A DNA stretch of 64,000 nucleotides, taken from IMG/VR virus record IMGVR_UViG_3300046786_000157, positions 57,220 through 121,219 of that record; one strand, 5' to 3'. Source of the stretch: a virus. The notes below the pieces were generated by a model that saw only the letters and a list, made by a program, of their open reading frames with translations, did no database searches and had not been told where the DNA came from. Both the position numbers and the translations under genes were made by a program. Of this stretch, positions 20,263 through 58,067 are shown piece after piece (the first letter of the stretch is position 1; every line of letters starts with the position of its first letter).

Positions 20263-20938
20263 TGTATATATCTGTGGATGTAGCTTCTCTACCGGGGCCT
20301 ATTGTACTGACACACATGTCGAATATAATACCCCGTATCCAGAACTGTTTTGTATAGATAAAACGCTATCCTTCGAAAATATTGCATTCAATGGATCATC
20401 AAATTATGGAATTGCGAAACAAGTTGAATACGCAATTAAACAACAACCTAAATTAATTTTAGTTAACGTTACTACGTCATTGAGATTTGACTGGACTATA
20501 CCAGAGTCACGATTAGAAGATTTACCTACACTTGCTAATTTTGTATTCAACAACAAATTGAATACATTAGAGCCAGACACAGAAAAATGCGTACACTCGT
20601 CTTCTTTGATAACACTAGTCAATGGAAATAAAAATAGAATACTCACTGAATATGTAGCAACATTTGTAGACCCGTGGTTGAAGAGTGATATGGATAGGTT
20701 AATAATTTTAGGTATGATACACCAATTGAAGGTATCAAAAATCCCATATCAGATTGTAAATTTTAATTCTGATTATACATTTTCGGCACCCTATGTGCTT
20801 GAGTACCCTTATAGTGTGTTCACTAAAAATTTTCCAGTTGCGACAGACCCTAATCACTTTAACAGTGCAGGCCACTTAGCATTATCTAAAGTATTACTAA
20901 GTACAATACCCAAAACTATTGACGTTAACTCTGTATAA
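20252..20938 (+). CDS. SGNH-like protein
   Basis: CGCSFSTG, NIAFNGSSN, DPNHFNSAGH. Confidence 0.6.
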   Translation: MKPDVYICGCSFSTGAYCTDTHVEYNTPYPELFCIDKTLSFENIAFNGSSNYGIAKQVEYAIKQQPKLILVNVTTSLRFDWTIPESRLEDLPTLANFVFNNKLNTLEPDTEKCVHSSSLITLVNGNKNRILTEYVATFVDPWLKSDMDRLIILGMIHQLKVSKIPYQIVNFNSDYTFSAPYVLEYPYSVFTKNFPVATDPNHFNSAGHLALSKVLLSTIPKTIDVNSV

Positions 20939-20947
20939 ATATATACT
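20919..20947 (+). promoter_or_regulatory. Promoter of the tmRNA gene
   Basis: TTGACG-N17-TATACT with an embedded TATAAATA (20934..20941). Confidence 0.75.
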
Positions 20948-20953
20948 GTAAGT

Positions 20954-21395
20954 TATTGCTGTATGAAGCAAAGAGAAAAGTGTTCTGGACGCGGGTTCGA
21001 CTCCCGCCTGGTCCACCAAAAGTGATCTTATGAATGATAAAATGAAAATTTGTGTAGTGTGTGAGAACTACAATGAGCAGAATAAATCCTGTAAGTTGTG
21101 TGGGTGCTACATGCCTGCAAAAACATTAGTACCGTTCGTTAAATGCCCCGCAGGCAAATGGTAAGATTATTTCTGATGGGCCAGTCATGGTTTCGACAGG
21201 GCAAAGAGTAACAGAGTGGACAGCTCGGGAAAGCAGAACCCGTAGGATTGGTAGAATGATCTGAAGCAAGCTAGTCTTGACAGTAGGATTTTCCGGTCGT
21301 AGAAGCAAAAAACCATAAATGCAAACGATTCAGTTTACGCATTGGCTGCTTGATAAAAGCATCCTAGGGTAAGACATACCTAGTAACAGAAACTC
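20954..21395 (+). ncRNA. ssrA: Circularly permuted (two-piece) tmRNA: acceptor piece about 20954..21018, coding piece 21178..about 21395
   Basis: T-arm GCGGG-TTCGACT-CCCGC plus CTGGTCC-A-CCA (20991..21018) precedes the 5' end GGGCCAG-TCATGGTTTCGAC (21178). The 7-bp acceptor stem has G3:U70. Tag frame 21321..21353 = ANDSVYALAA-stop. Outer ends are estimated. Confidence 0.93.
21030..21164 (+). CDS. 44-aa Cys-rich peptide within the tmRNA intervening segment
   Basis: MNDKMKICVVCENYNEQNKSCKLCGCYMPAKTLVPFVKCPAGKW; CxxC..CxxCGC..CP..W metal-binding pattern. Confidence 0.75.
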   Translation: MNDKMKICVVCENYNEQNKSCKLCGCYMPAKTLVPFVKCPAGKW

Positions 21396-21397
21396 AA

Positions 21398-21424
21398 GAA
21401 AGGCTCTTCGGAGCCTTTCCTTTT
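21398..21424 (+). terminator. Rho-independent terminator after the tmRNA
   Basis: GAAAGGCTC-TTCG-GAGCCTTTC then CTTTT. Confidence 0.85.
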
Positions 21425-21436
21425 ATAAATATTTTA

Positions 21437-22411
21437 ATGAAAAACTTCTTTTGTCCTGCGCCGTGGCGCTCAATTTATTACCATGTAAACAAGTCTGCGG
21501 TGTGTTGCATTAGCTCTAAGAGATTAGACATGTCTCCTAATGAGTTTCTCAAGAGTGATTACTTAGAAAATTTAAAAACTAAATTTTTAAACAATGAGTT
21601 TGATGAAACATGCACTGGATGTAAGAGACTAGAAGATGCAGGACTACAAAGCATACGCCAACATATGGTTGCATTGTATGGTGAAGACATAACTCCTAAG
21701 ATAGATTACATGGAGTTAAGAACTAGCAACTTGTGCAACTTTCAATGTAGGATGTGTAATGCTGATAACAGTTCATTGATTGCAGGTGAAGTTCGTAACA
21801 TAACAGACAAAGACTGGGACGAGATATTAACTCTATCAGAAAATTTGAAATACTTGACGTTAACTGGTGGCGAACCATTGTTGATTAAACACTACTATCA
21901 ACTATTAGACCATTTAATAGAGAAGAATAGAACAGACATTGAACTAAGAATATACACAAATGCTAGCGTATACAATCCAGTCTTCATTGAAAAAATGTTA
22001 AAGTTTAATACGATTGTAAATCTAAGCATAGATGGAGTAGGAGAAACTGCTAGTACTCAGCGTGTAGGCACTGACTGGAACGTAGTCAATGAAAACATAC
22101 AAAAGTTTTTAGCCTTACCAGTTAAGGTAAAATTCCATTCTACCTTTACAGTTTTGTCTATAGTAGATGTACATTCATTAGCAGAGTATTTTGCTACGAT
22201 AGCAAAGACTAACCCGCACTGTGGTTTTTCTGCACATACTGCAATTCTTCCTAAGGACTTAACAATCTATGGTATAGATTCTTCTAGTGCGGTCACTGCA
22301 ATAGAAAGCATTGACAAGGCATTAGTAATATTGACTGATCCTAGATTTGGACAACTACGTAAGCAACTTATGTCGTACAGAACCATAATTGACAACAAAA
22401 CCAAAACGTGA
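21437..22411 (+). CDS. Radical SAM protein with N-terminal Cys cluster
   Basis: CNFQCRMC, LTGGEP; N-terminal FCPAPW..CC..CTGC. Confidence 0.88.
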   Translation: MKNFFCPAPWRSIYYHVNKSAVCCISSKRLDMSPNEFLKSDYLENLKTKFLNNEFDETCTGCKRLEDAGLQSIRQHMVALYGEDITPKIDYMELRTSNLCNFQCRMCNADNSSLIAGEVRNITDKDWDEILTLSENLKYLTLTGGEPLLIKHYYQLLDHLIEKNRTDIELRIYTNASVYNPVFIEKMLKFNTIVNLSIDGVGETASTQRVGTDWNVVNENIQKFLALPVKVKFHSTFTVLSIVDVHSLAEYFATIAKTNPHCGFSAHTAILPKDLTIYGIDSSSAVTAIESIDKALVILTDPRFGQLRKQLMSYRTIIDNKTKT

Positions 22412-57095: not shown

Positions 57096-58067
57096 ATGGA
57101 CATTTTTGAATTAGAGCATATTTTTGTTGTCTTTCAGCCAGGTGCCGCTGGCAACTTCATAGTCTCTCTATTAGAGAAAATATTAAATCGTGATACTAAC
57201 ACTATTAATGTAGGTGAGTCTGGGACCGCACATACATTAATCAATAGAAAAATTGAAGGTACTGATTATTTGTCGTTCGGTACTGAAGTCATAGAGCATG
57301 AAGAATTCGATACAGAAGAAGAACGTATTGATTTTTATCTATCTAAAATAAAAACTGAGTATGTACATGTAACTTCCCCACAAATTATATGGACTCATGA
57401 TTTTACTAATATTCCAATATACAAGCGTTTCTTTCCTAAGGCCAAGATTCTTACTATTACACAAGAGTCTGATGCAGAAAAAATCGCAGTGGTACTATTA
57501 CATGTTATAAAAAATATACTAGACCTTAATACTATTAATCCGTTAACTGAAAAAAGAATGATTGAAGTACGGAAGATTTGGGATCTCGGCATGAAGATGA
57601 AACTAGGAGAAATGCTAGGTGAGGCTAAGGCTAGAACTCTAAACAAAGATAGCAATCTAATTAGATATGTGTCGTTTTCAAGAATGATGTCCTATTATAG
57701 ATTAAATAATCTAGTAGAAGAAAACAAAAAACAGGTTGACTTAGTTAACACTGTGCTATACCCGGCTAAAGGAATATTGATGCTAGGTAAAATACCTTAT
57801 ACTATAGGTAAAGAATACGCAGAGTACACTGATAACTGTACAAAGTTACCATTTAAATACCTCATGGATAACGACACCGAGTTATTGATAAACTCCTTAA
57901 GTCAACTAATAGAATTAGATGATGAACGTATTAAAATTATACTAAGCAACTATGACAACTATAGAAGTGTACAGAATCAAGAAATATTAGAGGATCCTTT
58001 GAAATATTATAACAAGATAAAAGAAGAAGGATACAATGAATTAAAACGGTTAGAACTAATTGGGTGA
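57096..58067 (+). CDS. Hypothetical protein, sulfotransferase-like N-terminal loop
   Basis: VVFQPGAAGNFIVSLL; related to 37425..38123; start uncertain (57081 or 57096). Confidence 0.5.
   Translation: MDIFELEHIFVVFQPGAAGNFIVSLLEKILNRDTNTINVGESGTAHTLINRKIEGTDYLSFGTEVIEHEEFDTEEERIDFYLSKIKTEYVHVTSPQIIWTHDFTNIPIYKRFFPKAKILTITQESDAEKIAVVLLHVIKNILDLNTINPLTEKRMIEVRKIWDLGMKMKLGEMLGEAKARTLNKDSNLIRYVSFSRMMSYYRLNNLVEENKKQVDLVNTVLYPAKGILMLGKIPYTIGKEYAEYTDNCTKLPFKYLMDNDTELLINSLSQLIELDDERIKIILSNYDNYRSVQNQEILEDPLKYYNKIKEEGYNELKRLELIG

Follow-up and report, generated by a model that had tools for sequence, protein, structure and literature searches.

A two-piece (circularly permuted) tmRNA gene of a phage was found to carry, in the spacer that is inferred to be cut out when the RNA matures, a genuine and conserved gene for a 44-residue cysteine-rich protein, and related uncultured phages use the same spacer as a slot for some twenty other small genes, including a thioredoxin. 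No description of this arrangement was found in the papers that could be searched. The analysed DNA, referred to below as the window, is a stretch of 64,000 nucleotides (positions 57,220 to 121,219) of the IMG/VR virus record IMGVR_UViG_3300046786_000157, a 121-kb record estimated to be 35% complete and hence derived from a large phage. All long ORFs of the window lie on the + strand and the G+C content is about 38%. Related loci identified in the searches are designated by L followed by a number.

The tmRNA gene and the protein gene in its spacer

RNA gene prediction with ARAGORN gave a single RNA gene in the window, a permuted tmRNA at 20926-21444 (+), and Rfam covariance models gave matches over the full model length to tmRNA_permuted (RF04321, 110.8 bits against a cut-off of 47) and beta_tmRNA (RF01850, 97.2 bits against a cut-off of 84), i.e. 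the gene is of the beta-proteobacterial type. The order is permuted, with the T-arm and the 3' acceptor strand with CCA lying upstream of the 5' acceptor strand and the tag frame, and the alanine identity pair G3:U70 and a tag frame ending in a hydrophobic ALAA-type degron plus stop are both present. Stems are maintained by compensatory changes, since the T-arm reads GCGGG/CCCGC in the window and GGGGG/CCCCC in L020 (an ENA contig with the same tmRNA architecture and the same 159-nt intervening segment), and the acceptor stem changes from A6:T to T6:A. SmpB was not found in the 121-kb record, which is only about 35% complete. The coordinates of the individual features are listed in Table 1.

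Table 1. Features of the permuted tmRNA locus, numbered from the first letter of the window
Position	Strand	Feature	Basis
20919-20947	+	Sigma-70-like promoter of the pre-tmRNA (TTGACG, 17 nt, TATACT)	Consensus scan, 10 of 12 matches; a promoter-like site at this position in 32 of 92 distinct upstream regions of related loci, against 8 in shuffles
20957-21018	+	tmRNA acceptor piece: 3' half of the tRNA-like domain, T-arm, acceptor 3' strand CTGGTCC (21008-21014), discriminator A (21015), encoded CCA (21016-21018)	RF04321 and RF01850 alignments; ARAGORN; compensatory changes against L020
21019-21177	+	Intervening segment (IVS), 159 nt, inferred to be absent from the mature two-piece tmRNA	Bounded by CCA and by G1 of the 5' acceptor strand (21178); treated by Rfam as an insertion in the acceptor-stem loop
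21020-21031	+	5' strand of the IVS closing helix, containing the leader and the first two bases of the start codon	Pairs with 21161-21172 (12 bp, 3 G-U) by direct reading and in the MFE fold
21030-21164	+	Gene for a 44-residue six-Cys protein (PHROG 13558, DUF6171-like)	ORF list; PHROG match; related clusters; purifying selection; AF2 model
21161-21172	+	3' strand of the IVS closing helix, overlapping the TAA stop codon	Direct reading, MFE fold and covariation among related IVS
21178-21421	+	tmRNA coding piece: 5' acceptor strand GGGCCAG with G3:U70, pseudoknot region, tag reading frame, 3' hairpin	Rfam alignments; ARAGORN; last ~120 nt 100% identical in L166
21321-21356	+	Tag reading frame ANDSVYALAA followed by two stop codons	ARAGORN (396-431 of the gene starting at 20926); reading of the sequence
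21398-21428	+	Intrinsic terminator-like hairpin (21398-21419) plus T-run, ending the pre-tmRNA unit	Terminator scan: 9-bp stem, 5 G-C pairs, T-rich tail
21437-22411		Radical SAM gene	PF04055, 52.5 bits

The observation in the original prediction, namely a complete 44-codon ORF with the Cys spacing CxxC-x9-CxxCGC-x12-CPxxxW nested in the 159-nt intervening segment, was confirmed with exact coordinates and content. The architecture was also present in independent contigs from different sources, namely IMG/VR, ENA and the JGI metagenome contigs L207, L211, L217, L220 and L258, so that it is not an assembly artefact.

The length of the frame alone would not be decisive, because 1% of 300 shuffles of this AT-rich spacer gave an ORF as long. 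Conservation of the frame and the dN/dS ratio, which had been named beforehand as a check, were therefore examined against three relatives. Against L020, 17 of 23 nucleotide differences were at third codon positions, with pS of 0.72, pN of 0.06 and dN/dS of about 0.03. The L123 type, found on six contigs, showed saturated synonymous sites and pN of 0.24, and L166, the closest relative, gave pS of 0.64 and pN of 0.09. All six Cys were kept in every relative, although only three sequence variants of this particular spacer gene were found (the window, L020 and the L123 type).

For the identification of the protein family, the peptide was compared with profile, sequence and structure collections. 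It matched PHROG 13558 (phage protein of unknown function) at E 7.4e-11 and 42.9 bits, residues 2-44 matching profile positions 26-68 of 69. A word-indexed protein search found only one relative, whereas a full HMMER search of 1.84 billion representatives found 782 clusters at E<=0.001, mostly proteins of 44-90 residues with this domain at the C-terminus, so that the family comprises at least 782 protein clusters. In an alignment of 70 of them, C8, C11, C21, C24, C26, K31, C39, P40 and W44 were invariant. The resemblance to DUF6171 proposed in the original prediction was a fair lead, but the Pfam match (PF19668) was below the gathering score of 27 bits, with 15.7 bits for the window and 18.5 bits for L123, and covered only the C-terminal half of the profile (41-80 of 80). 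The nearest ESM-Atlas clusters were viral proteins of which 27-51% carry DUF6171. The peptide is likely a distant relative, but cannot be filed as a member. AF2 predicted a compact fold with a mean pLDDT of 87.8, for which Foldseek against PDB gave 0 hits and VIA-align in its wide search a best Z of 2.1. A profile search of PDB gave only sub-significant hits to the zinc ribbon of bL32 (E 0.056-0.3) over the first two CxxC pairs.

A reading in which the frame is not translated, and is kept open by constraints on an RNA structure or by chance with incidental similarity to proteins, is very unlikely on this evidence. It could draw on the 1% shuffle frequency, on the absence of a canonical Shine-Dalgarno motif and on the base-paired start, but it is contradicted by the concentration of differences at third positions, the invariant residues, the PHROG match, a free-standing orthologue in L166 and the 26 to 1 asymmetry between sense and antisense spacer ORFs described below. 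The window copy lacks the AAGGA motif that L123 and many other spacer ORFs have, and carries only GTGATC, which is complementary to the 16S 3' end by inspection. However, most genes of this phage lack a Shine-Dalgarno motif (53 of 72), so that its absence here does not argue against translation.

A radical SAM gene starts 273 nt after the stop codon of the ORF, and the six Cys in 44 residues raised the possibility of a SCIFF/ranthipeptide-like precursor modified by this enzyme. This RiPP reading was rejected as very unlikely. A degenerate DNA motif from the conserved core found 122 loci in viral and metagenome collections, and no homologue of the radical SAM protein lay near any of the 121 other loci carrying the peptide family. 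L118 keeps the radical SAM gene next to a tmRNA without the peptide, while L166 keeps the peptide without a homologue of the enzyme in the locus. Furthermore, the peptide is predicted to fold compactly, and its conserved residues span the whole length instead of forming a leader plus a core. Of the 122 motif hits, about 116 were free-standing phage genes, occurring as ordinary small genes in cyanophage, T4-like and other phage gene arrays, and only the L123-type copies were inside a tmRNA.

Spacer contents and their turnover in related phages

For the survey of related spacers, an exact 35-mer from the acceptor piece was searched and hit at least 120 IMG/VR contigs, and the IVS could be delimited in 111 loci, which gave 89 distinct sequences of 24 to 382 nt. 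Of 44 distinct IVS of 80 nt or more, 26 were at least 70% filled by a sense ATG-ORF and 1 by an antisense ORF, and 25 beat 300 shuffles at p<=0.05. Every IVS of 181 nt or more was coding, although one of them, the 183-nt L038, is filled only if a GTG start is allowed, its longest ATG-ORF covering about two thirds. The ORFs start 9-15 nt after CCA, often behind AAGGA directly after CCA, and stop at -1 or at -9 to -13 relative to G1 (1, 9 or 12-13 nt before it) or shortly past it. They fall into about 20 unrelated families, several of which also showed pN well below pS, for example L099/L125 and a membrane micro-peptide family. A second scan, anchored on CCA plus AAGGA and therefore biased towards coding spacers, added 57 tmRNAs from other sub-clades, 44 of them coding. 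Three spacer ORFs matched Pfam above the cut-off, namely a thioredoxin (75.4 bits, L327), a CxxCxxCC protein (29.4 bits, L030) and a PGDYG protein (27.8 bits, L294), the thioredoxin and the PGDYG protein coming from the second scan, and Rfam placed these ORFs inside full-length tmRNA_permuted hits. In total, the arrangement was found in more than 70 phage contigs.

IVS nucleotides 2-10 paired with nucleotides -6 to -14 in 87-100% of the 89 distinct sequences, with four to six pair types per position, and hence a covarying helix of 10 bp (12 bp in the window) extends the acceptor stem in coding and non-coding spacers alike. In the window this helix takes in the first two bases of the start codon and the whole stop codon, which should hinder initiation.

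The comparison of individual loci showed that the spacer content turns over. L118 is syntenic with the window (a giant upstream protein, then the tmRNA, then a radical SAM gene), and its acceptor piece and the first 47 nt of its coding piece are identical to those of the window, but its 116-nt IVS is unrelated and non-coding. L166 has flanking proteins 91-96% identical to those of the window. Its Cys gene is intact (82% identity) but free-standing, followed by a decayed copy of the 5' acceptor region, an extra gene and then an intact permuted tmRNA. The promoter, acceptor piece, IVS (a different 38-codon ORF) and first ~110 nt of this tmRNA differ from those of the window, while its last ~120 nt, including the tag and the terminator, are 100% identical. 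This is the signature of recombination inside the tmRNA gene, and it also shows that the Cys protein is kept regardless of whether it sits in the spacer. On a tree of the mature tmRNA parts, coding spacers were scattered, with at least 14 changes of state forced by supported branches, but the tree is poorly resolved and the count of independent gains is rough.

In L097 a SegE-type GIY-YIG gene, and in L025 an HNH gene, lies between a truncated duplicate of the acceptor piece and an intact tmRNA. The T-loop interruptions in L025, L088 and L097 were first read as group I introns, but Rfam found no intron and did find an intact tmRNA further downstream, so they are truncated duplicate acceptor pieces next to endonuclease genes. 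Stenotrophomonas phage Marzo also has an HNH gene just upstream of its tmRNA. Gene conversion driven by such endonucleases is a plausible motor for the turnover, but this is an inference and the link is circumstantial.

An origin by tandem duplication of a unit of peptide gene plus tmRNA was also considered, because homologues of the peptide lie 0.47 kb (Xanthomonas phage X1) and 1.36 kb (Marzo) upstream of permuted tmRNAs. It was set aside, since those tmRNAs are already permuted and have non-coding spacers of 126 and 57 nt, respectively, and in the window's own clade only one locus (L140) has a free-standing homologue, 11 kb from the tmRNA. The phage-type acceptor-piece 32-mer had no exact match in 185,579 species genomes. 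A further genome scan, whose pattern carried eight instead of seven N between the T-loop and the acceptor strand and which is thus no valid test of cellular permuted tmRNAs, gave two hits that are chance matches in coding DNA, and the same pattern found nothing in viral contigs.

Interpretation of the spacer as a probable cargo slot

The interpretation given in the original prediction was partly supported. A complete, selected gene does lie in the segment inferred to be excised from a permuted tmRNA that looks functional, in the loop closed by the acceptor stem and an extension helix. Promoter-like and terminator-like sites bracket the unit, so that a single transcript giving both products, as had been proposed, is the simplest reading. 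The claim that no gene inside a two-piece tmRNA spacer had been described agreed with the papers that could be searched. The alternative proposal that translation gates tmRNA maturation was not supported.

The explanation considered likely is that the gene encodes a minimal member of a widespread family of small phage proteins with six invariant cysteines, and that the intervening segment is a cargo slot co-transcribed with the tmRNA. In this view, the whole unit would be transcribed from the tmRNA promoter to the tmRNA terminator, RNase P cleavage before G21178 and 3'-end maturation to CCA21018 would separate the two tmRNA pieces from the segment carrying the ORF, and the protein would be translated from the precursor, from a 3'-trailing intermediate or from a released fragment. 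The gene would not be a dedicated partner of the tmRNA. In this clade of uncultured phages the conserved 10-bp closing helix and the flanking tmRNA sequences stay fixed while the loop holds nothing or any of some 20 or more unrelated small genes (membrane micro-peptides, a thioredoxin, a CxxCxxCC protein, a PGDYG protein and this Cys protein). The cargo is probably exchanged by recombination within the conserved tmRNA sequences, which the homing endonuclease genes at the same locus in relatives may promote. The anatomy, the coding selection, the conserved helix and the modular turnover are thus shown by the analysis, whereas expression of the protein, the cutting of the precursor into two pieces acting in trans-translation, release of a short-leader mRNA and the probable metal binding are inferred, the processing steps resting on the maturation of two-piece tmRNA reported by Keiler et al. 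2000.

Functional coupling, in which translation of the ORF gates or times tmRNA maturation or maturation unlocks translation, is considered unlikely. Ribosomes on the ORF would have to melt the closing helix and the adjacent acceptor stem, while RNase P cleavage and 3' trimming would remove the strand that sequesters the leader, and protein and tmRNA output would then be mechanistically linked. This reading is favoured by the position of the leader, start codon and stop codon inside a covarying 10-12 bp helix stacked on the acceptor stem, and by ORF boundaries held within a few nucleotides of CCA and G1 in all cargo families. In one class the stop is the conserved TGA one base before G1, and in another the frame runs past G1, so that cleavage would remove the stop codon. 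However, about half of the spacers of 80 nt or more, and nearly all shorter ones, have no ORF, yet flank equally conserved tmRNAs, the cargo families are unrelated to each other, L118 and L166 show the same tmRNA backbone with another spacer or none of this kind, and the Cys gene persists outside the tmRNA. The tight boundaries are equally explained by selection to keep the processing helix intact. These observations argue that the link to the tmRNA is one of expression and location, and do not point to the peptide acting on, or gating, tmRNA maturation. A more far-reaching version is doubtful but was not excluded, in which the spacer hairpin is a processing-coupled expression device and not a passive slot, much like the fold-back inhibition of hok mRNA. 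The closing helix would pair the leader, with its ribosome-binding site and start codon, to the 3' end of the spacer, and cleavage at G1 followed by 3' trimming would unlock translation, so that synthesis of the cargo protein would be tied to tmRNA maturation. For cargo families whose frame runs past G1, the same cleavage would turn the message into a non-stop mRNA, a substrate of the very tmRNA it was cut from.

The finding adds a third kind of content to tmRNA genes, beside group I introns and integrated islands, namely ordinary protein genes carried inside the segment inferred to be discarded during maturation of two-piece tmRNA. Annotation pipelines that mask RNA genes, or that call the tmRNA and stop there, will miss these genes, one of which is a bona fide thioredoxin. 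The locus offers a natural system for asking how a bacterial cell handles a transcript that must be both processed as a folded tRNA-like RNA and read by ribosomes. Ultraconserved RNA-gene flanks, probably together with homing endonucleases, can in this view serve as fixed recombination anchors for swapping accessory genes among phages, and the architecture would be a compact way to co-express a stable RNA and a small protein from one promoter.

Comparison with known systems

Two-piece tmRNA genes of Alphaproteobacteria, Betaproteobacteria and cyanobacteria (Keiler, Shapiro and Williams 2000; Sharkady and Williams 2004; PMC11915505) have the same order of acceptor piece, intervening segment and coding piece, with the intervening segment removed by tRNA-processing enzymes, and permuted tmRNA genes are also described in phages (PMC9004378). 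Their intervening segments are treated as non-coding, and the 2025 database survey of 11,946 permuted genes (79 phage sequences in the database in all) singles out only a tRNA-Ala gene and a repetitive element as unusual contents (PMC11915505), whereas here the segment carries a selected protein gene and, in related phages, many different ones. Homing-endonuclease genes in group I introns of the tmRNA T-loop (PMC11915505) likewise lie within a part of the tmRNA gene that is absent from the mature RNA, but those ORFs serve the mobility of a self-splicing intron, while the spacer ORFs encode no nuclease and their segment would be removed by tRNA-type end processing. In hok-type type I toxin mRNAs the 5' leader pairs with the 3' end and hides the ribosome-binding site of a small, often hydrophobic, peptide gene (fold-back inhibition), and in dual-function RNAs such as SgrS/SgrT one transcript has both an RNA role and a coding role; here no antisense partner is seen, no toxicity is known and the resemblance is structural only. 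The nearest analogue is the intervening sequence of 23S rRNA with the S23p ORF in Coxiella burnetii (PMC4990558), in which a protein ORF also lies inside a stem-closed segment excised from a stable-RNA precursor. The host RNA, the processing enzymes and the protein family all differ, that protein is probably not made in vivo and the element is described as selfish, whereas here many unrelated ORFs under purifying selection share one slot. Finally, in the mitochondrial tRNA punctuation model and in phage tRNA clusters with interspersed small ORFs, such as the T4 tRNA region with segB, coding segments are delimited by RNase P and 3'-end processing of adjacent tRNA-like structures and a homing endonuclease acts at a conserved RNA-gene cluster, but there the mRNA lies between separate RNA genes, and here it lies inside a single RNA gene, between two halves that must afterwards pair with each other.

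Spacer and tag variants in related phage tmRNA loci

A conserved spacer ORF family of 35-38 residues (CPxCF...KHKC) was found to read through the predicted RNase P site in the related phage loci L037, L040, L069, L106 and L110 (intervening segment of 107 nt) and L268, L284, L288 and L291 (intervening segment of 101 nt). The stop of this family lies 12 or 27 nt inside the mature coding piece, so cleavage at G1 would leave a message without a stop codon. Some longer non-coding spacers, in the loci L026, L076 and L118 (intervening segments of 93, 71 and 116 nt, respectively), are G+C-richer and contain T-arm-like hairpins (for example a GGGTTCGA...CCC element), and they may hold structured RNA elements instead of ORFs. 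With ARAGORN, the tmRNA carrying the L123-type Cys gene (contigs L123, L207, L211 and L217) was predicted to have an unusually long tag of 33 residues ending in LLAA, while the tag of the window has 10 residues.

Genes adjacent to the tmRNA

The coordinates of the features are listed in the table below. A radical SAM gene (PF04055) sits directly after the tmRNA in the window and in L118, a locus syntenic with it, and its 41%-identical relative in the locus L005 lies in the middle of a 16-gene tRNA cluster, which suggests an RNA-related role for the enzyme. The 1579-residue protein of the window has about 14 repeats of a motif like FDFSWxPxPxxPPYIYxFGxQW, gave no Pfam match and is conserved upstream of the tmRNA in L118, in the metagenome contig L220 and in L166, the closest relative of the window. 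The 228-residue gene preceding the tmRNA in the window is present twice in tandem in L166, at 79% and 43% identity, and the second copy abuts the free-standing Cys gene. In L281, ARAGORN called a tRNA with anticodon CTA (an amber-reading, 'Pyl'-type call) about 0.9 kb downstream of a cargo-bearing permuted tmRNA; this is a possible suppressor tRNA in that phage.

Coordinates of features at or near the tmRNA genes
Record	Positions	Feature
Window	15523-20262	Gene for the 1579-residue repeat protein
Window	20252-20938	Gene for the 228-residue protein
Window	21437-22411	Radical SAM gene
L118	6846-7823	Radical SAM gene
L005	2006-3049	Relative of the radical SAM gene
L166	1433-3047 (reverse strand)	Tandem copies of the 228-residue gene
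L281	6981-7055	tRNA with anticodon CTA
L001 (Xanthomonas phage X1)	2501-2629	Homologue of the Cys protein
BUDD	168132-168260	Homologue of the Cys protein
L097	5980-7116	Truncated acceptor piece, SegE-type GIY-YIG gene, intact tmRNA
L025	2630-4315	Truncated acceptor piece, HNH gene, intact tmRNA
L088		Truncated acceptor piece, intact tmRNA

Comparison with annotated phages and putative homing endonucleases

The homologue of the Cys protein is unannotated in the GenBank records of Xanthomonas phage X1 (L001) and BUDD, where it lies about 0.5 kb upstream of their permuted tmRNA, which is itself unannotated in X1. In the loci L097, L025 and L088, a copy of the tmRNA acceptor piece truncated by a break within the T-arm is followed by an endonuclease gene, of the SegE type (GIY-YIG) in L097 or of the HNH type, on the opposite strand, in L025, and then by an intact permuted tmRNA. 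These look like free-standing homing endonucleases targeting the tmRNA gene, and they are not group I introns.
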